Shown: positions 24,124-59,641 of the stretch, piece after piece
How the letters are laid out: every line of letters begins with the position of its first letter
How positions within the stretch are numbered: position 1 is the first letter of the stretch
Source of the DNA: Escherichia coli
GTDB taxonomy: Bacteria; Pseudomonadota; Gammaproteobacteria; Enterobacterales; Enterobacteriaceae
Assembly (NCBI RefSeq): GCF_050920415.1
Contig: NZ_CP169309.1
DNA length: 64,000 nt
Direction: 5' to 3' (one strand)
The notes under the pieces: model-generated
Databases searched by the model: none
Seen by the model: only the letters and a program-made list of their open reading frames with translations
Told to the model about the DNA's origin: nothing
Program-made: the position numbers and the translations under genes

Positions 24124-25679
<1,556 letters not shown>

Positions 25680-34517: not shown

Positions 34518-34853
34518 AGGTTTCTCCTGTAATAGCAGCCGGTTAAACCCGGCTACCTGAATGGGTTGCGAATCGCGTTCAGCTTATATTGTGGTCATTA
34601 GCAAAATTTCAAGATGTTTGCGCAACTATTTTTGGTAGTAATCCCAAAGCGGTGATCTATTTCACAAATTAATAATTAAGGGGTAAAAACCGACACTTAA
34701 AGTGATCCAGATTACGGTAGAAATCCTCAAGCAGCATATGATCTCGGGTATTCGGTCGATGCAGGGGATAATCGTCGGTCGAAAAACATTCGAAACCACA
34801 TATATTCTGTGTGTTTAAAGCAAATCATTGGCAGCTTGAAAAAGAAGGTTCAC

Positions 34854-36290
34854 ATGTCAAACAACATTCGTATCGAAGAAGATCTGTTGGGTACCAGGGA
34901 AGTTCCAGCTGATGCCTACTATGGTGTTCACACTCTGAGAGCGATTGAAAACTTCTATATCAGCAACAACAAAATCAGTGATATTCCTGAATTTGTTCGC
35001 GGTATGGTAATGGTTAAAAAAGCCGCAGCTATGGCAAACAAAGAGCTGCAAACCATTCCTAAAAGTGTAGCGAATGCCATCATTGCCGCATGTGATGAAG
35101 TCCTGAACAACGGAAAATGCATGGATCAGTTCCCGGTAGACGTCTACCAGGGCGGCGCAGGTACTTCCGTAAACATGAACACCAACGAAGTGCTGGCCAA
35201 TATCGGTCTGGAACTGATGGGTCACCAGAAAGGTGAATATCAGTACCTGAACCCGAACGACCATGTTAACAAATGTCAGTCCACTAACGACGCCTACCCG
35301 ACCGGTTTCCGTATCGCAGTTTACTCTTCCCTGATTAAGCTGGTAGATGCGATTAACCAACTGCGTGAAGGCTTTGAACGTAAAGCTGTCGAATTCCAGG
35401 ACATCCTGAAAATGGGTCGTACCCAGCTACAGGACGCAGTACCGATGACCCTCGGTCAGGAATTCCGCGCTTTCAGCATCCTGCTGAAAGAAGAAGTGAA
35501 AAATATTCAACGTACCGCTGAGCTGCTGCTGGAAGTTAACCTTGGCGCAACAGCAATCGGTACTGGTCTGAACACGCCGAAAGAGTACTCTCCGCTGGCA
35601 GTGAAAAAACTGGCTGAAGTCACTGGCTTCCCATGCGTACCGGCTGAAGACCTGATCGAAGCGACCTCTGACTGCGGCGCTTATGTTATGGTTCACGGCG
35701 CGCTGAAACGCCTGGCTGTGAAGATGTCCAAAATCTGTAACGACCTGCGCTTGCTCTCTTCTGGTCCACGTGCCGGCCTGAACGAGATCAACCTGCCGGA
35801 ACTGCAGGCGGGCTCTTCCATCATGCCAGCTAAAGTAAACCCGGTTGTTCCGGAAGTGGTTAACCAGGTATGCTTCAAAGTCATCGGTAACGACACCACT
35901 GTTACCATGGCAGCAGAAGCAGGTCAGCTGCAGTTGAACGTTATGGAGCCGGTCATTGGCCAGGCTATGTTCGAATCCGTTCACATTCTGACCAACGCTT
36001 GCTACAACCTGCTGGAAAAATGCATTAACGGCATCACGGCTAACAAAGAAGTGTGCGAAGGTTACGTTTACAACTCTATCGGTATCGTTACTTACCTGAA
36101 CCCGTTCATCGGTCACCACAACGGTGACATCGTGGGTAAAATCTGTGCCGAAACCGGTAAGAGTGTACGTGAAGTCGTTCTGGAACGCGGTCTGTTGACT
36201 GAAGCGGAACTTGACGATATTTTCTCCGTACAGAATCTGATGCACCCGGCTTACAAAGCAAAACGCTATACTGATGAAAGCGAACAGTAA
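34854..36290 (+). CDS. aspA: Aspartate ammonia-lyase
   Basis: ORF-track 493 aa; start set at [24 protein letters not shown]... (478 aa); fumarase/aspartase signature [10 protein letters not shown]. Confidence 0.97.
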
Positions 36291-36314
36291 TCGTACAGGG
36301 TAGTACAAATAGAG

Positions 36315-36342
36315 AAGGCACGTCAGATGACGTGCCTTTTTT
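36315..36342 (+). terminator. Rho-independent terminator after aspA
   Basis: Hairpin GGCACGTCA-GAT-GACGTGCC followed by TTTTTT. Confidence 0.6.
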
Positions 36343-36407
36343 CTTGTGAGCAGTAACTTAAAAATAACAATCTAATATCAACTTGTTAAAAAACAAGGAA
36401 GGCTAAT

Positions 36408-37709
36408 ATGCTAGTTGTAGAACTCATCATAGTTTTGCTGGCGATCTTCTTGGGCGCCAGATTGGGGGGAATAGGTATTGGTTTTGCAGGCGGATTGGGG
36501 GTGCTGGTTCTTGCCGCTATTGGCGTTAAACCCGGTAACATCCCGTTCGATGTCATTTCCATTATCATGGCGGTTATCGCCGCTATTTCTGCCATGCAGG
36601 TTGCTGGCGGTCTGGACTATCTGGTTCATCAGACAGAAAAGCTGCTGCGCCGTAACCCGAAATACATCACGATCCTCGCACCGATCGTGACCTATTTCCT
36701 GACAATCTTTGCTGGTACTGGCAACATCTCTCTGGCAACGCTGCCTGTTATCGCTGAAGTTGCGAAGGAACAAGGCGTTAAACCGTGCCGTCCGCTGTCT
36801 ACTGCAGTGGTATCCGCGCAGATTGCGATCACCGCATCGCCAATCTCAGCGGCCGTGGTTTACATGTCTTCCGTAATGGAAGGTCATGGCATCAGCTACC
36901 TCCATCTGCTCTCCGTGGTCATCCCGTCCACCTTGCTGGCGGTTCTGGTGATGTCCTTCCTGGTCACTATGCTGTTCAACTCCAAACTCTCTGACGATCC
37001 GATTTATCGCAAGCGTCTGGAAGAAGGCCTCGTTGAACTGCGCGGTGAAAAGCAGATTGAAATCAAATCCGGTGCAAAAACGTCCGTCTGGCTGTTCCTG
37101 CTGGGCGTAGTTGGCGTGGTTATCTATGCAATCATCAACAGCCCAAGCATGGGTCTGGTTGAAAAACCGCTGATGAACACCACCAACGCAATCCTGATCA
37201 TCATGCTCAGCGTTGCAACTCTGACCACCGTTATCTGTAAAGTCGATACCGACAACATCCTCAACTCCAGCACCTTCAAAGCAGGTATGAGCGCCTGTAT
37301 TTGTATCCTGGGTGTTGCGTGGCTGGGCGATACTTTCGTTTCCAACAACATCGACTGGATCAAAGATACCGCTGGTGAAGTGATTCAGGGTCATCCGTGG
37401 CTGCTGGCCGTCATCTTCTTCTTTGCTTCTGCTCTGCTGTACTCTCAGGCTGCAACCGCAAAAGCACTGATGCCGATGGCTCTGGCACTGAACGTTTCTC
37501 CGCTGACCGCTGTTGCTTCTTTCGCTGCGGTGTCTGGTCTGTTCATTCTGCCGACCTACCCGACGCTGGTTGCTGCGGTACAGATGGATGACACGGGTAC
37601 TACCCGTATCGGTAAATTCGTCTTCAACCATCCGTTCTTCATCCCGGGTACTCTGGGTGTTGCCCTGGCCGTTTGCTTCGGCTTCTTGCTGGGTAGCTTC
37701 ATGCTGTAA
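36408..37709 (+). CDS. dcuA: Anaerobic C4-dicarboxylate transporter DcuA
   Basis: 433-aa ORF MLVVELIIVLLAIFLGARLGGIGIG..., paralogous to the dcuB product at 54452. Confidence 0.95.
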   Translation: MLVVELIIVLLAIFLGARLGGIGIGFAGGLGVLVLAAIGVKPGNIPFDVISIIMAVIAAISAMQVAGGLDYLVHQTEKLLRRNPKYITILAPIVTYFLTIFAGTGNISLATLPVIAEVAKEQGVKPCRPLSTAVVSAQIAITASPISAAVVYMSSVMEGHGISYLHLLSVVIPSTLLAVLVMSFLVTMLFNSKLSDDPIYRKRLEEGLVELRGEKQIEIKSGAKTSVWLFLLGVVGVVIYAIINSPSMGLVEKPLMNTTNAILIIMLSVATLTTVICKVDTDNILNSSTFKAGMSACICILGVAWLGDTFVSNNIDWIKDTAGEVIQGHPWLLAVIFFFASALLYSQAATAKALMPMALALNVSPLTAVASFAAVSGLFILPTYPTLVAAVQMDDTGTTRIGKFVFNHPFFIPGTLGVALAVCFGFLLGSFML

Positions 37710-40638: not shown

Positions 40639-40667
40639 AAACGGACCTCCACGGAGGTCCGTTTTTC
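40639..40667 (+). terminator. Rho-independent terminator after tRNA-Phe
   Basis: Hairpin GGACCTCC...GGAGGTCC followed by TTTTT. Confidence 0.7.
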
Positions 40668-46725: not shown

Positions 46726-46783
46726 TTAGCTCGTACAAGGGAAGTGGCTTGCCACTTCCCTTTTTTGCTCATAAGGAGAACAC

Positions 46784-48477: not shown

Positions 48478-49995
48478 ATGTCTGAACGAGAAACACGGGG
48501 AGCCAATGAGGCTATTGATTTTAACGATGAACTGAGAAATCGCCGCGAAAAACTGGCAGCACTGCGTCAGCAAGGTGTGGCGTTTCCTAATGATTTTCGC
48601 CGCGACCATACCTCTGACCAGTTGCACGAAGAGTTTGATGCGAAGGATAACCAGGAACTGGAATCCTTAAACATTGAAGTCTCGGTTGCTGGCCGAATGA
48701 TGACCCGTCGTATCATGGGGAAAGCCTCCTTTGTAACGTTGCAGGATGTCGGTGGCCGTATTCAACTGTACGTTGCACGAGATAGCCTGCCAGAAGGTGT
48801 TTATAACGATCAGTTTAAAAAATGGGACCTCGGCGACATTATCGGTGCCCGCGGTACGCTGTTTAAGACGCAAACGGGTGAACTTTCCATTCACTGTACT
48901 GAGCTGCGCCTGCTGACTAAAGCACTACGTCCTTTACCAGATAAATTCCATGGTCTGCAGGATCAGGAAGTCCGTTATCGTCAACGTTATCTGGACCTCA
49001 TCGCTAACGATAAATCCCGTCAAACGTTTGTTGTCCGTTCAAAAATTCTGGCCGCTATCCGCCAGTTCATGGTCGCGCGCGGCTTTATGGAAGTAGAAAC
49101 CCCGATGATGCAGGTAATTCCAGGTGGGGCATCTGCTCGCCCGTTTATTACCCATCATAATGCTCTGGATTTGGATATGTACCTGCGTATTGCGCCGGAG
49201 CTATATCTGAAACGTCTGGTTGTAGGTGGTTTTGAACGGGTATTCGAAATCAACCGTAACTTCCGTAATGAAGGTATTTCTGTTCGTCATAATCCTGAGT
49301 TCACGATGATGGAACTCTACATGGCGTATGCGGATTACCACGATTTGATTGAACTGACGGAATCACTGTTCCGCACTCTGGCACAAGAGGTACTGGGTAC
49401 CACTAAAGTCACTTATGGCGAGCATGTGTTTGATTTCGGCAAACCGTTTGAAAAACTCACCATGCGCGAAGCAATCAAAAAATATCGTCCAGAAACCGAT
49501 ATGGCGGACCTGGATAATTTTGATGCTGCTAAAGCATTAGCTGAATCTATCGGAATTACGGTAGAGAAAAGCTGGGGGCTGGGACGCATTGTCACGGAGA
49601 TCTTTGATGAAGTGGCAGAAGCACATCTGATTCAGCCAACCTTTATCACGGAATATCCGGCAGAAGTGTCACCGCTGGCGCGCCGTAATGATGTTAACCC
49701 GGAAATCACCGACCGTTTTGAATTCTTCATCGGTGGTCGTGAAATCGGTAATGGTTTTAGCGAATTAAACGACGCAGAAGATCAGGCGGAACGTTTCCAG
49801 GAACAGGTTAACGCTAAAGCTGCAGGTGACGACGAAGCCATGTTCTATGACGAAGATTACGTGACTGCGCTGGAATATGGTCTGCCGCCAACCGCGGGTC
49901 TGGGTATTGGTATCGACCGAATGATTATGCTGTTTACTAACAGTCATACTATTCGCGACGTTATTCTCTTCCCGGCGATGCGTCCACAGAAATAA
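48478..49995 (+). CDS. lysU: Lysine--tRNA ligase, heat-inducible (LysU)
   Basis: ORF-track 514 aa; start set at [33 protein letters not shown]...; class II aaRS motifs; identified as lysU by its position next to cadBA/dtpC. Confidence 0.93.
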
Positions 49996-50006: not shown

Positions 50007-50040
50007 ACGAACGAAGCAGTCAGACGACTGCTTCGTTCGT
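50007..50040. terminator. Bidirectional terminator-like hairpin between lysU and ghoT
   Basis: Perfect 15-bp inverted repeat ACGAACGAAGCAGTC-AGAC-GACTGCTTCGTTCGT between convergent genes; no strong T-run. Confidence 0.45.
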
Positions 50041-53167: not shown

Positions 53168-53883
53168 TCAATGTATTAATTATTGATGACGACGCAATGG
53201 TCGCGGAGCTGAATCGTCGATACGTGGCACAAATCCCAGGCTTTCAATGCTGTGGAACGGCCTCGACGCTGGAGAAAGCCAAAGAGATTATCTTCAATAG
53301 CGATACGCCTATCGACCTGATATTGCTCGATATCTATATGCAAAAAGAGAACGGGCTCGATTTACTGCCTGTTCTGCATAATGCGCGTTGCAAAAGTGAT
53401 GTGATTGTTATCTCTTCCGCTGCCGATGCCGCAACCATTAAAGATTCGCTGCATTACGGAGTCGTGGATTACCTGATCAAACCCTTCCAGGCTACCCGCT
53501 TTGAAGAGGCGCTCACCGGCTGGCGGCAAAAGAAAATGGCGCTGGAAAAACATCAGTATTATGACCAGGCCGAGCTTGATCAGCTAATCCACGGCAGCAG
53601 CTCCAACGAGCAGGATCCTCGTCGCTTGCCAAAAGGCTTAACACCACAGACGTTACGCACGCTGTGCCAGTGGATTGACGCGCATCAGGACTATGAGTTT
53701 TCAACCGACGAGCTGGCTAATGAGGTTAACATCTCGCGTGTTTCCTGCCGTAAATATCTCATCTGGCTGGTCAACTGCCACATCTTGTTCACCAGTATCC
53801 ATTATGGCGTCACAGGTCGTCCGGTTTATCGTTATCGTATTCAGGCAGAACATTACTCACTACTTAAACAATATTGCCAATAA
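53164..53883 (+). CDS. dcuR: Response regulator DcuR
   Basis: 239-aa ORF MINVLIIDDDAMVAELNRRYV...; ATGA overlap with the dcuS stop. Confidence 0.95.
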   Translation: MINVLIIDDDAMVAELNRRYVAQIPGFQCCGTASTLEKAKEIIFNSDTPIDLILLDIYMQKENGLDLLPVLHNARCKSDVIVISSAADAATIKDSLHYGVVDYLIKPFQATRFEEALTGWRQKKMALEKHQYYDQAELDQLIHGSSSNEQDPRRLPKGLTPQTLRTLCQWIDAHQDYEFSTDELANEVNISRVSCRKYLIWLVNCHILFTSIHYGVTGRPVYRYRIQAEHYSLLKQYCQ

Positions 53884-54451
53884 CGATCACGGTTATCTGT
53901 AAGTAATAATTATTACAGTAATGCAAAATACCCCTGGCACAAGTTACATCGTTCATCAGTAAAACTTGTGCCAGATCAAATATAATTCCCCCTCTCTCAC
54001 CGCTGAAAATTAATATCTCTTCGGATGAACGGTGTTTTTAATTTCAAAACGCTAACAAAAGTTAATTAACTATTATGTCGCCCACATTATGTGTATTTTT
54101 ACCCACAAATGGGTAGTTAAGAATAATCTATAAACCTGATGATACCTACCCTGAGAACAAAAATTATACCAATAAGTATCAATAAGATAGCAGCAAACAA
54201 AACATTAACATCTGCGTAGTACAAACTATAAACCCATCGCCAGAGAGTATTTCTCTCTGAAAAAACCGCTTATCACAGTGCATAAATTTGCCGCTGCTTT
54301 AATCAGCCAATATTCACTGTGAGGTATTTACTCAAGCCGGTAACGACCAAACGGATATTTAGTCAAGCTCTGAAAACAGTTCATACAAAACAGAACGTGA
54401 CTGTGATCTATTCAGCAAAAATTTAAATAGGATTATCGCGAGGGTTTACAC

Positions 54452-55792
54452 ATGTTATTTACTATCCAACTTATCATAATACTGATATGTCTGTTTTATG
54501 GTGCCAGAAAGGGCGGTATCGCGCTGGGTTTATTAGGCGGTATCGGCCTGGTCATTCTGGTCTTTGTCTTCCACCTTCAGCCAGGTAAACCACCGGTTGA
54601 TGTCATGCTGGTTATCATTGCGGTGGTGGCGGCATCGGCGACCTTGCAAGCTTCGGGCGGTCTTGATGTCATGCTGCAAATTGCCGAGAAGCTGCTGCGC
54701 CGCAATCCGAAATATGTCTCCATTGTCGCACCGTTTGTAACCTGCACGCTGACCATTCTTTGCGGTACGGGCCACGTGGTTTACACCATTCTGCCGATCA
54801 TCTACGACGTTGCTATTAAGAACAACATCCGTCCGGAACGTCCGATGGCGGCAAGTTCTATCGGTGCACAGATGGGGATTATCGCAAGCCCAGTGTCGGT
54901 TGCGGTCGTATCTCTGGTTGCGATGCTGGGTAATGTCACCTTTGATGGTCGCCATCTTGAGTTCCTCGACCTGCTGGCAATCACCATTCCATCGACGTTA
55001 ATCGGTATCCTGGCGATCGGTATCTTCAGTTGGTTCCGCGGTAAAGATCTGGATAAAGATGAAGAGTTCCAGAAATTCATCTCCGTACCGGAAAACCGTG
55101 AGTATGTTTACGGTGATACCGCGACGCTGCTGGATAAAAAACTGCCGAAAAGCAACTGGCTGGCAATGTGGATCTTCCTCGGGGCAATCGCTGTAGTTGC
55201 ACTTCTTGGTGCTGATTCGGACCTGCGTCCATCCTTCGGTGGCAAACCGCTGTCGATGGTACTGGTTATTCAGATGTTTATGCTGCTAACCGGAGCGCTG
55301 ATTATTATCCTGACCAAAACCAATCCCGCGTCTATCTCAAAAAACGAAGTCTTCCGTTCCGGTATGATCGCCATCGTGGCGGTGTACGGTATCGCATGGA
55401 TGGCGGAAACCATGTTCGGTGCGCATATGTCTGAAATTCAGGGCGTACTGGGTGAAATGGTGAAAGAGTATCCGTGGGCCTATGCCATTGTTCTGCTGCT
55501 GGTTTCCAAGTTTGTAAACTCTCAGGCCGCGGCGCTAGCGGCGATTGTTCCGGTCGCGCTGGCGATCGGCGTTGACCCGGCATACATCGTGGCTTCAGCA
55601 CCGGCTTGCTATGGTTATTACATCCTGCCGACTTATCCGAGCGACCTGGCAGCGATTCAGTTTGACCGTTCCGGCACCACCCACATCGGTCGCTTCGTCA
55701 TCAACCACAGCTTTATTCTGCCGGGGTTGATTGGTGTGAGCGTATCGTGCGTCTTCGGCTGGATCTTCGCTGCGATGTACGGGTTCTTATAA
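54452..55792 (+). CDS. dcuB: Anaerobic C4-dicarboxylate antiporter DcuB
   Basis: 446-aa [29 protein letters not shown]...; Dcu family. Confidence 0.95.
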
Positions 55793-55869
55793 ATGCACTT
55801 TGCGTGCCGCCCGTGACTGCGCGGCACGCCATTTTCGAATAACAAATACAGAGTTACAGGCTGGAAGCT

Positions 55870-57516
55870 ATGTCAAACAAACCCTTTATCTACCAGGCAC
55901 CTTTCCCGATGGGGAAAGACAATACCGAATACTATCTACTCACGTCCGATTACGTTAGCGTTGCCGACTTCGACGGCGAAACAATCCTGAAAGTGGAACC
56001 AGAAGCCCTGACTCTGCTGGCGCAGCAAGCCTTCCACGACGCTTCTTTCATGCTCCGCCCGGCACACCAGAAACAGGTTGCTGCAATTCTTCACGATCCA
56101 GAAGCCAGCGAAAACGACAAGTACGTGGCGCTGCAATTCTTAAGAAACTCAGAAATCGCCGCCAAAGGCGTGCTGCCAACCTGCCAGGATACCGGCACCG
56201 CGATCATCGTCGGTAAAAAAGGTCAGCGCGTGTGGACCGGCGGCGGTGATGAAGAAGCGCTGTCGAAAGGCGTCTATAACACCTATATCGAAGATAACCT
56301 GCGCTATTCACAGAATGCGGCGCTGGACATGTACAAAGAGGTCAACACCGGCACTAACCTGCCTGCGCAAATCGACCTGTACGCGGTAGATGGCGATGAG
56401 TACAAATTCCTCTGCGTCGCCAAAGGCGGTGGCTCTGCCAATAAAACGTATCTCTACCAGGAAACCAAAGCCCTGCTGACTCCCGGCAAACTGAAAAACT
56501 TCCTCGTTGAGAAAATGCGTACCCTCGGTACTGCAGCCTGCCCGCCGTACCATATCGCGTTTGTGATTGGCGGTACGTCTGCGGAAACCAACCTGAAAAC
56601 CGTCAAGTTAGCAAGCGCTCACTATTACGATGAACTGCCGACCGAAGGGAACGAACATGGTCAGGCGTTCCGAGATGTCCTGCTTGAACAGGAACTGCTG
56701 GAAGAGGCCCAGAAACTCGGCCTTGGCGCGCAGTTTGGCGGTAAATACTTCGCGCACGACATCCGCGTGATCCGTCTGCCACGTCACGGCGCATCCTGCC
56801 CGGTAGGTATGGGCGTCTCCTGCTCCGCTGACCGTAACATTAAAGCGAAAATCAACCGCGAAGGTATCTGGATCGAAAAACTGGAACACAATCCAGGCCA
56901 GTACATTCCACAAGAACTGCGTCAGGCTGGTGAAGGCGAAGCGGTGAAAGTCGACCTTAACCGCCCGATGAAAGAGATCCTCGCCCAGCTTTCGCAATAC
57001 CCGGTATCCACCCGTTTGTCGCTCACCGGCACTATTATCGTGGGTCGCGATATTGCACATGCCAAGCTGAAAGAGCTGATTGACGCCGGTAAAGAACTGC
57101 CGCAGTACATCAAAGATCACCCGATCTACTACGCGGGTCCGGCGAAAACGCCTGCCGGTTATCCATCAGGTTCACTTGGCCCAACCACCGCAGGTCGTAT
57201 GGACTCCTACGTGGATCTGCTGCAATCCCACGGCGGCAGCATGATCATGCTGGCGAAAGGTAACCGCAGTCAGCAGGTCACCGACGCGTGTCATAAACAC
57301 GGCGGCTTCTACCTCGGTAGTATCGGCGGTCCGGCGGCGGTACTGGCGCAGCAGAGCATCAAGCATCTGGAATGCGTCGCTTATCCGGAGCTGGGTATGG
57401 AAGCTATCTGGAAAATCGAAGTAGAAGATTTCCCGGCGTTTATCCTGGTCGATGACAAAGGCAACGACTTCTTCCAGCAAATCGTCAACAAACAGTGCGC
57501 GAACTGCACTAAGTAA
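55870..57516 (+). CDS. fumB: Class I (Fe-S) fumarate hydratase, anaerobic (FumB)
   Basis: 548-aa [40 protein letters not shown]... Confidence 0.96.
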
Positions 57517-57638
57517 CCTCTTCGGCCCAGCGCCTGGCAGCATGCTGCCAGGTGATCCCCCTGGGCCACCTCTTTTGCGATTGTAATTTCACGCTTGCTG
57601 GTGAATAGTCAGTATTTTCCCTGACTTGCGAACTCACC

Positions 57639-58289
57639 ATGACCCGCACACTCAAGCCGTTAATTCTTAACACCGGCGCACTGGCGCTAACGTTAATCCT
57701 GATTTATACCGGCATTTCGGCCAATGACAAACTCACCTGGCTGATGGAAGTGACACCGGTGATTATTGTCGTGCCGCTACTGCTTGCCACCGCTAAACGT
57801 TATCCGTTAACGCCGCTGCTCTATACGCTCATTTTCTTTCACGCCATCATCCTGATGGTCGGCGGGCAATACACCTACGCGAAAGTCCCCGTTGGTTTTG
57901 AGGTGCAGGAATGGCTGGGGTTGAGCCGTAATCCGTATGACAAGCTGGGGCATTTTTTCCAGGGGCTGGTGCCTGCACTGGTGGCGCGAGAAATTCTCGT
58001 TCGCGGGATGTACGTGCGCGGACGTAAAATGGTGGCGTTTCTGGTCTGCTGCGTGGCGCTGGCGATAAGCGCGATGTATGAATTAATCGAGTGGTGGGCA
58101 GCGCTGGCAATGGGTCAGGGAGCGGATGATTTTCTCGGTACCCAGGGCGACCAATGGGACACACAATCCGATATGTTCTGCGCGCTGCTTGGTGCATTAA
58201 CTACGGTGATATTCCTTGCTCGCTTTCATTGCCGCCAGCTACGGCGCTATGGCTTAATCACCAGAGCGCCGGAAGCGATTACCTCTTAA
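57639..58289 (+). CDS. yjdF: Inner membrane protein YjdF (DUF2238)
   Basis: 216-aa hydrophobic ORF MTRTLKPLILNTGALALTLILIYTG...; stop codon overlaps the melA stop. Confidence 0.8.
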   Translation: MTRTLKPLILNTGALALTLILIYTGISANDKLTWLMEVTPVIIVVPLLLATAKRYPLTPLLYTLIFFHAIILMVGGQYTYAKVPVGFEVQEWLGLSRNPYDKLGHFFQGLVPALVAREILVRGMYVRGRKMVAFLVCCVALAISAMYELIEWWAALAMGQGADDFLGTQGDQWDTQSDMFCALLGALTTVIFLARFHCRQLRRYGLITRAPEAITS

Positions 58290-59641
58290 CGGTGTAACCA
58301 GCCTGGCAGCCAGTCGCCGTGGGCGGCAATCAGGTCGTCAATAAGAGCATAGATTTCATCAATGCCCAGCACGGCAGCGGTATGTGGGTCCATCATCGCG
58401 GCATGGTAAACACGGTCGCGATTTTCTGTGAGAATGGCTTCCGTCAGCAGCGTCTGTACGTTGATATTGGTTTGCATCAGGGCGGCCAGATGCGAAGGTA
58501 GCGTACCGACTTTGGTCGGCTGAATGCCATTAGCATCAACTAAACAGGCCACTTCCACGCAACATCCTTGTGGCAGGTTATCAATCAAACCATCGTTACG
58601 GACGTTGCCATAAATCACACTCGGCTCGCCAGTCCAGATAGCGTTCATGATTGTGCTGGCATATTCCCGTGACGGTTTAATATCAATCCGGGAGGCGTTC
58701 TTATACTCCTCCAGCTCTTTATGCCAGTTTGCCAATTGTTCGACGCAGCGTTTCGGGTACTCATCCAGCGGCACTTTATAACGCTCAATCAAATCCTCAC
58801 GACCAGGCTTAATAAACCACGGTGTGTATTCAGCAAAATGTTCTGACGATTCCGTGACGAAGTAGCCCAGCTTTTTGAACATTTCATAACGCACAATATT
58901 CTGGCAGCGAGTATTGCCATGAATATTCGGCTTCGGTGCCTGCCCTGCGTCATACGCTGCCAGCAGTTCTGGGTAGAGATTCACGTAACTGCCGTCGGCG
59001 GTTTTGCGCTCCAGTTCCAGGTAAAACGCCATATGGTTGATACCCGCGCAACGGTAACGCAACGTAGCTGGGTCGATATTGAGATCACGCGCCAGCTCTT
59101 CCGCCGTTCCCTGCACCGAATGGCACAGCCCTACCTGTTTGATATGCGGATAGCGGGCATACATCGCCCAGGTATTCATCGCCATTGGGTTAACATAGTT
59201 GAGCATAGTGGCATCGGGGCAGACTTCCGTCATGTCCTCGCAAATTTGCCACAGGTGCGGAATGGTACGTAGCGCGCGCATAATACCGCCCGGCCCCAAC
59301 GTATCGGCAATGGTTTGTTCCAGACCGTGGCGCTTACAGACCTCAAAATCAGTCACCGTGCAAGGTTCATAACCGCCAATCTGAAATGCCACTACGACAA
59401 AATCGGCATCCTGTAAGGCTTCTTTCTGTTGGGTGTGGCAGGTGATTTTGCCACTGGCCCCCGCTGAATCCATCAGCTTGCGCACCACAATGTGCGACTC
59501 TTCCAGGCGGATGGGATCAATGTCCATCAGGGCAATATGCGCCGTTTTTAGCGCCTCGCGATGGAACACATCACCAAGAATATTTTTAACGAAAATCGTC
59601 GAACCAGCGCCGATAAATGTAATTTTAGGTGCAGACATCAT
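58286..59641 (-). CDS. melA: Alpha-galactosidase (melibiase) MelA, NAD/Mn-dependent GH4
   Basis: 451-aa ORF MMSAPKITFIGAGSTIFVKNILGDVF... ending ...DWLPGWLHR. Confidence 0.95.
   Translation of the reverse strand: MMSAPKITFIGAGSTIFVKNILGDVFHREALKTAHIALMDIDPIRLEESHIVVRKLMDSAGASGKITCHTQQKEALQDADFVVVAFQIGGYEPCTVTDFEVCKRHGLEQTIADTLGPGGIMRALRTIPHLWQICEDMTEVCPDATMLNYVNPMAMNTWAMYARYPHIKQVGLCHSVQGTAEELARDLNIDPATLRYRCAGINHMAFYLELERKTADGSYVNLYPELLAAYDAGQAPKPNIHGNTRCQNIVRYEMFKKLGYFVTESSEHFAEYTPWFIKPGREDLIERYKVPLDEYPKRCVEQLANWHKELEEYKNASRIDIKPSREYASTIMNAIWTGEPSVIYGNVRNDGLIDNLPQGCCVEVACLVDANGIQPTKVGTLPSHLAALMQTNINVQTLLTEAILTENRDRVYHAAMMDPHTAAVLGIDEIYALIDDLIAAHGDWLPGWLHR

Follow-up and report, generated by a model that had tools for sequence, protein, structure and literature searches.

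The window, by which we mean the whole 64-kb stretch of E. coli DNA that was analysed, carries on its + strand dcuB, the gene of the anaerobic C4-dicarboxylate transporter (54452..55792, with the stop codon TAA read at 55790-55792), followed by fumB, the gene of the class I [4Fe-4S] fumarate hydratase (55870..57516, with its ATG at 55870). The first gene was assigned from the open reading frame list, a match to NCBIfam NF009136 (760.8 bits) and the RefSeq annotation, and the second from NCBIfam NF011920 (1292 bits) and the annotation. Between them the sequence leaves a spacer of 77 nt on the same strand (55793-55869), and it is in this spacer that the hairpin under study is present, at a site where RefSeq has no annotated feature. 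Of the 5426 complete E. coli genomes, 5413 match the 261 bases around the hairpin, the genes annotated beneath the match being dcuB and fumB, and the gene order in the K-12 record is dcuS-dcuR-dcuB-fumB-yjdF. On the far side of fumB, 3′ of its stop codon and before yjdF at 57639, there is a nested GC-rich hairpin (57517-57580; GGCCCAG...CCTGGCAGCATGCTGCCAGG...CTGGGCC, then ACCTCTTTTG) that is probably the real 3′ end of the operon, though the T-run there is modest too.

The first-pass annotation had described a 9-bp GC-rich inverted repeat at 55802-55829 in the dcuB-fumB gap with a weak T-run behind it, and direct reading of the sequence found both exactly as described. The 5′ arm GCGTGCCGC (55802..55810, + strand) starts 9 nt past the dcuB stop and is 100% complementary over its 9 bp to the 3′ arm GCGGCACGC (55821..55829, + strand), 8 of the 9 pairs being G-C. 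The 10-nt gap that separates them is the loop CCGTGACTGC (55811..55820, + strand), within which RNAfold adds one internal C-G pair and leaves 6 nt unpaired. Folded alone the hairpin has an energy of -18.2 kcal/mol, and in the fold of a 340-nt context no stem pair falls below a probability of 0.978. Immediately after the stem come C55830 and A55831, then TTTT at 55832-55835 and then CG (the E. coli tail is CATTTTCGAA), which means that the T-run is offset from the stem by 2 nt. This short run is part of an AU-rich linker, CATTTTCGAATAACAAATACAGAGTTACA (55830..55858, + strand), which is predicted to be unstructured and in which polymerase might weakly terminate or an endonuclease might cut.

To see how often such a repeat arises by chance, perfect 9-bp inverted repeats with a loop of 3-12 nt and at least 8 G/C per arm were counted in dinucleotide shuffles, which gave an expectation of 0.12 per 64-kb shuffle against 2 observed, or about 1e-4 for one given 77-nt spacer. 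The minimum free energy of the 77-nt spacer as a whole is unremarkable (z=-0.14 on the + strand and -0.89 on the - strand), because the remainder of the spacer, beyond the hairpin, is AU-rich and unstructured, and the signal is thus a local one. A scan of 53500-58500 against Rfam with E up to 10 gave no match overlapping 55793-55869, and a consensus scan called neither a promoter nor a terminator within the spacer.

For comparison across species, DcuB was scanned in one genome per species, which yielded 80 loci. Wherever fumB begins 61-96 nt past dcuB, i.e. in Escherichia, Salmonella, Citrobacter and Intestinirhabdus (26 sequences, the window being one of them), a hairpin is always found 7-10 nt past the dcuB stop, and the stem is kept not only in these four genera but also in Leminorella and Budvicia. 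On aligning the 26 short-spacer sequences with MAFFT, the 9 stem pairs are formed in 98.7% of the alignment cells, and 5 of the 9 pairs show compensatory double changes. None of 500 shuffles matched these values of pairing and covariation, a comparison in which the relatedness of the sequences makes the shuffle controls overstate significance; in a control that preserves relatedness, where the partner was slid by 1-3 columns, pairing was only 14-60%. The same stem is recovered independently by RNAalifold. The changes can be followed pair by pair: the top pair is C-G in Escherichia, U·G in C. youngae and U-A in C. werkmanii and others, pair 4 goes from U-A to C-G in Salmonella, and pair 5 from G-C to A-U in C. 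amalonaticus. Pairwise identity among the 26 taxa is 87.8% in the 5′ arm and 86% in the 3′ arm, with 48.8% in the loop (the length of which varies from 3 to 10 nt between taxa), 52% in the 5′ flank, 44% in the tail and 55-57% at four-fold degenerate positions in the neighbouring codons of dcuB and fumB. Directly behind the stem, a stretch of 10 nt (alignment columns 42-51) has an identity of 43.6%, at or below the level of the four-fold sites, and variation within E. coli, in the genomes examined, likewise falls in the loop and the 5′ flank.

By this measure the constraint lies on the stem only, with the loop, flanks and tail drifting at about the neutral rate. The comparison confirms that the hairpin is real and evolutionarily constrained, and that it is the structure and not the sequence that is under selection. 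On the + strand 8 cells hold a G·U pair and only 1 holds a C·A, so the selected structure is RNA of the mRNA sense; a DNA cruciform or an antisense RNA is contradicted by these + strand wobbles. The earlier proposal of a functional element at the dcuB/fumB boundary therefore stands to the extent that covariation and arm identity point to a selected RNA structure there.

The same proposal had offered a partial terminator as one of two options for what the element does. An intrinsic terminator typically has a U-rich tract, with 5-6 U or more among the 8 nt directly 3′ of the stem. We scored termination potential as d, taking the best G-C-closed hairpin after dcuB and combining the hairpin energy per length with a decaying T-score; the formula has the form of d'Aubenton Carafa 1990, and its values serve for comparison only. 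Among the 48 loci where dcuB has no fumB downstream (Klebsiella, Proteus, Pectobacterium, Serratia and others), the median number of T in 8 is 6, the median T-score is 3.46 and d is above zero in 25, against a median of 3, a median T-score of 0.5 and not a single positive d in the 26 short-spacer taxa. The hairpin of the window has a T-score of 1.14 and d=-33, its tail CAUUUUCG having 4 T of 8 and none at the first two positions; it thus has the stable GC-rich stem of an intrinsic terminator and lacks the U-tract. In all Escherichia sequences sampled, CATTTTCG with its TTTT run is invariant. The Citrobacter tails (CACCGTTAAG) and the Salmonella tails (ACTTAGAG or CTTAATAC) have no U-tract, with 1-3 T of 8. 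The control is the hairpin in the aspA-dcuA spacer (36291-36407, between aspA at 34809-36290 and dcuA at 36408-37709), 19 kb away: AAGGCACGTC-AGAT-GACGTGCCTT at 36315-36338, followed by TTTTCTT, has 7 T of 8 and d=+39 and is a canonical terminator. Judged by its tail, the dcuB-fumB hairpin is not one. Since Citrobacter and Salmonella keep the stem without a T-run and the tail is neutral, termination cannot be what preserves the stem from genus to genus, and the dcuB-fumB hairpin would terminate weakly at most, and in Escherichia only. Neither gene has an entry in the supplements of Adams 2021, TERMITe 2025 and SMRT-Cappable-seq, and neither is mentioned in Beauchene 2015.

Other hairpins of the window were noted on the way. 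Three perfect hairpins of 9-11 bp look like ordinary gene-end terminators: CGGCCCGCC-TAT-GGCGGGCCG at 24503-24523, followed by TTTTG; AAACGGACCTCC-AC-GGAGGTCCGTTT at 40639-40664, followed by TTCG; and AAGGGAAGTGGC-TT-GCCACTTCCCTT at 46737-46762, followed by TTTTG. A 13-bp perfect inverted repeat without a T-run, GAACGAAGCAGTC-AGAC-GACTGCTTCGTTC, is present at 50009-50038, right after an open reading frame that ends at 49995 and that we take from its map position to belong to the lysU region.

Outside the short-spacer taxa, fumB also follows dcuB in Leminorella, Budvicia and Limnobaculum, with a spacer of 285-336 nt. The arms of the hairpin after dcuB are GCGTGCCGC...GCGGCACGC in Leminorella and GCGTGCGC...GCGCACGC in Budvicia aquatica. 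The hairpins of these two genera share the GCGTGC(C/G)GC arms of the E. coli hairpin, and they are followed by 5-6 T of 8 (GTTTTAAT, TTTTTATA). Across taxa the distance from the hairpin to the dcuB stop is constant at 7-10 nt, and that to the fumB start ranges from ~23 to ~300 nt. Most simply read, the hairpin of E. coli is a former dcuB terminator that lost its U-tract with the collapse of the spacer, the polarity of this change being our inference. On this reading the spacer would have shrunk to 61-96 nt and the U-run decayed in Escherichia, Salmonella and Citrobacter, whereby fumB would have come under the dcuB promoter. A search for FNR sites in the long Budviciaceae spacers gave weak matches only, with 2 mismatches. 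Five of the Budviciaceae loci (L032, L039, L057, L064 and L076) share a conserved block, (C)CTT(A/G)(C/T)(T/C)TTATGGTGTC(C/G)G(C/T)G(G/T)..., some 60-110 nt upstream of fumB, which may belong to the leader or the promoter of a fumB that is transcribed on its own. Trabulsiella odontotermitis has dcuB-fumB spacers of 354-395 nt (L018 4342-4695; L019 4342-4736) that hold a different hairpin of ~20 bp and an apparent conserved small ORF of ~55 codons (…ENTG..AG.KK…QFLLD.FMRKHA.YKQYR…).

Published data bear on how much transcription passes the hairpin. Driven by a constitutive promoter, a fumB-lacZ fusion that spans -77..+24, i.e. the whole spacer, shows expression, which RyhB represses (PMC4666370), and the Salmonella dcuB-fumB intergenic region in pXG-30sf gives GFP expression that is repressed by SdhX (PMC6393394). 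The ratio of Δfnr to wild type is 0.055 for fumB (an 18-fold FNR dependence) and 0.028 for dcuB, and the only FNR site listed for the dcuB-fumB operon is upstream of dcuB (PMC3688515). The expression of the spacer reporters and the FNR dependence of fumB together show substantial read-through of the hairpin, which, along with the short, offset and neutrally evolving T-run and its absence in Citrobacter and Salmonella, weakens the partial-terminator option of the first-pass annotation. Golby and co-workers are said to have seen a monocistronic fumB transcript and putative degradation products as well, with no primer-extension start for fumB. As far as it is cited in bioRxiv 10.1101/2021.03.01.433382, the work of Golby et al. 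1998 has dcuB transcribed alone and also cotranscribed with fumB.

The translation-initiation region of fumB, GGCTGGAAGCTATGTC (55859..55874, + strand), lies 30 nt downstream of the hairpin and is complementary to nt 47-62 of RyhB, the sequence of which was verified by Rfam RF00057. The duplex of the two has an energy of -19.6 kcal/mol, a value reached by 1 of 1000 shuffles. In Salmonella the fumB start region is also the pairing region of SdhX (PMC6393394), and the short-spacer taxa have GGCTGGAAGC conserved there, while the Budviciaceae with their long spacers carry motifs that are nearly identical to it. Wang et al. (PMC4666370) found the RyhB effect on fumB to be 1.74 in ribosome occupancy vs 0.27 in mRNA (p=0.48); dcuB is absent from the target lists examined. 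With so small an effect on the fumB mRNA level, sRNA-triggered decay may not occur here.

On balance we lean, with modest confidence, to the view that the conserved function of the hairpin is to define and protect the 3′ end of dcuB; within this view the exonuclease barrier, the cleavage site and the effect on the expression ratio are each our inference. The other option of the earlier proposal, an mRNA-processing or stability element, is consistent with all the data and fits better than the partial terminator. The features expected of a decay barrier are present, namely a stable structure directly 3′ of dcuB in a polycistronic mRNA and selection on that structure, and a stable U-less hairpin next to an open AU-rich stretch is how an intercistronic decay barrier is classically built. 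The stem-loop begins just far enough past the dcuB stop codon to clear a ribosome halted there, and RNA polymerase would mostly read on into fumB, which would be expressed mainly from the FNR/DcuR-controlled dcuB promoter. After a cut in the downstream AU-rich linker, the stem would block a 3′-to-5′ exonuclease; alternatively, the trigger may be decay from the sRNA-targeted fumB start or an occasional stop of the polymerase in Escherichia, at the weak tail CAUUUUCG. The dcuB part would then end in a stable hairpin and survive as the monocistronic dcuB transcript, and DcuB levels would thereby be uncoupled from FumB levels. Two other fates of the RNA were considered and set aside: the 9-10-bp stem is far below the about two helical turns that an RNase III site needs, and the U-tail is too short for a likely Hfq-dependent 3′UTR sRNA.

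Each of these features can be placed beside known systems. Leaky intra-operon terminators are found at rpsU/dnaG and rplL/rpoB, and intercistronic stabilising stem-loops are exemplified by the malE-malF REP and the Rhodobacter puf hairpins. Like an intrinsic terminator, the dcuB hairpin is GC-rich, lies a few nt past a stop codon and is homologous to the T-run hairpins of Budviciaceae, and like the leaky kind it sits at a point where short and long transcripts have been reported, going by the citing preprint; unlike an intrinsic terminator, it has no adequate U-tract and its tail is not under selection. The GC-rich palindrome in a spacer between co-oriented genes also recalls REP/BIME elements. 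A repeat of this type was rejected, as the sequence occurs at a median of 1 place per genome in the 5413 genomes and has no Rfam match; presumably it is also unrelated to the REP consensus. The aspA-dcuA pair offers a further parallel, since there too a Dcu transporter gene adjoins the gene of an enzyme acting on its substrate and a hairpin occupies the short spacer; unlike that pair, with its 7 T of 8 and d=+39, dcuB-fumB has the reverse gene order and has lost the U-tract. The aspA-dcuA cotranscript is reportedly only minor. In the iscRSUA operon RyhB brings about the loss of iscSUA, from which iscR is spared by a structure between iscR and iscS (Desnoyers 2009, as summarised where it is cited). 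The dcuB hairpin resembles this case in lying directly after the upstream cistron, in having downstream an Fe-S enzyme gene with an sRNA-targeted start, and in the upstream-only transcript (dcuB) that the preprint cites; it differs from iscR-iscS and from the REP stabilisers in being a single short 9-bp hairpin, and from iscRSUA in that RyhB altered fumB translation more than the fumB mRNA level. We propose that the hairpin works like the intercistronic stabilisers, and that it derives from an intrinsic terminator and no longer qualifies as one.

Protection of the dcuB 3′ end has to be weighed against readings that share part of its evidence. A leaky intrinsic terminator, in which the hairpin with CAUUUUCG would release a fixed fraction of the polymerase in Escherichia, give rise directly to the monocistronic dcuB transcript and set fumB below dcuB, is a possible though doubtful explanation. 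It can draw on the -18.2 kcal/mol GC-rich stem with UUUU 2 nt on, on the invariance of TTTT in the Escherichia sampled, on the likeness of the homologous Leminorella and Budvicia hairpins to real terminators and on the monocistronic dcuB transcript known from the preprint's citation; yet there are only 4 T of 8 with C and A next to the stem, d is -33 vs +39 for aspA-dcuA, the consensus scan does not call it, compensatory changes maintain the stem in Citrobacter and Salmonella without a T-run and before a neutral tail, and the reporters and the FNR dependence of fumB show substantial read-through. Rather unlikely, in our estimate, is that the hairpin serves as an insulator, such that RyhB in E. 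coli (iron) or SdhX in Salmonella (TCA-cycle status) silences FumB and the ensuing decay, or loss of RNA free of ribosomes, is kept out of dcuB, with the transporter still being made. The element could instead belong to fumB, either as a stem-loop that a cut between the dcuB stop and the stem makes 5′-terminal and that stabilises a processed monocistronic fumB mRNA in the manner of ompA or as insulation of the ribosome-binding site from dcuB coding RNA. The reported monocistronic fumB without a primer-extension start would suit this, as would a hairpin upstream of an unstructured AU-rich leader with a conserved translation-initiation region and the lack of a promoter-like site in the spacer on the consensus scan; but in Budvicia and Leminorella the hairpin is ~300 nt from fumB and has a T-run, so there it belongs to dcuB, and its distance is constant to the dcuB stop and variable to the fumB start, for which we hold a role on the fumB side to be distinctly improbable.

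That the hairpin has no function, being a chance palindrome or a decayed terminator that persists by shared ancestry, is very improbable. The decayed U-tract and the unremarkable fold energy of the whole spacer would agree with it, and relatedness inflates the significance of the shuffles, but arms that are 86-88% identical against 44-57% for the loop, tail and four-fold sites are hard to reconcile with a relic, as are five pairs that changed on both sides and still pair (the C-G, U·G, U-A series at the top pair among them) and 98.7% pairing vs 14-60% in the slid controls that preserve relatedness. Perfect dyad symmetry and high arm conservation might also suggest a DNA palindrome bound by a dimeric regulator, or a dispersed repeat of the REP/BIME kind. 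This is barely credible, given that the arm spacing varies from 3 to 10 nt, which argues against a dimeric protein site, that complementarity is kept rather than sequence, with strand-specific G·U wobbles, and that a repeat family is at odds with a single copy per E. coli genome and no Rfam family match. Protection of the dcuB 3′ end is thus the reading that we prefer.

Full-text literature searches returned no description of a dcuB-fumB hairpin among the accessible papers, and in that literature the hairpin itself appears not to have been described previously, though the kind of element is well known and the transcript pattern was published in 1998. The understanding of the operon and of fumarate respiration is unchanged by it, and the hairpin would be a small, ordinary element of post-transcriptional tuning. 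If it does protect the dcuB 3′ end, it would account for an old Northern-blot observation, that of separate dcuB, fumB and dcuB-fumB transcripts without a fumB promoter having been found. Should the insulator reading hold, nature would offer with it a second example of discoordinate operon control of the iscRSUA type, one that arose by the change of a full terminator into a U-less barrier upon fusion of the genes into one operon. As a protector of the dcuB end, the hairpin would show how a transporter and an Fe-S enzyme encoded on one mRNA can be given separate dosing and regulation, and it would be a clean evolutionary example of a terminator that loses its U-tract and yet keeps its stem as transcription units merge.
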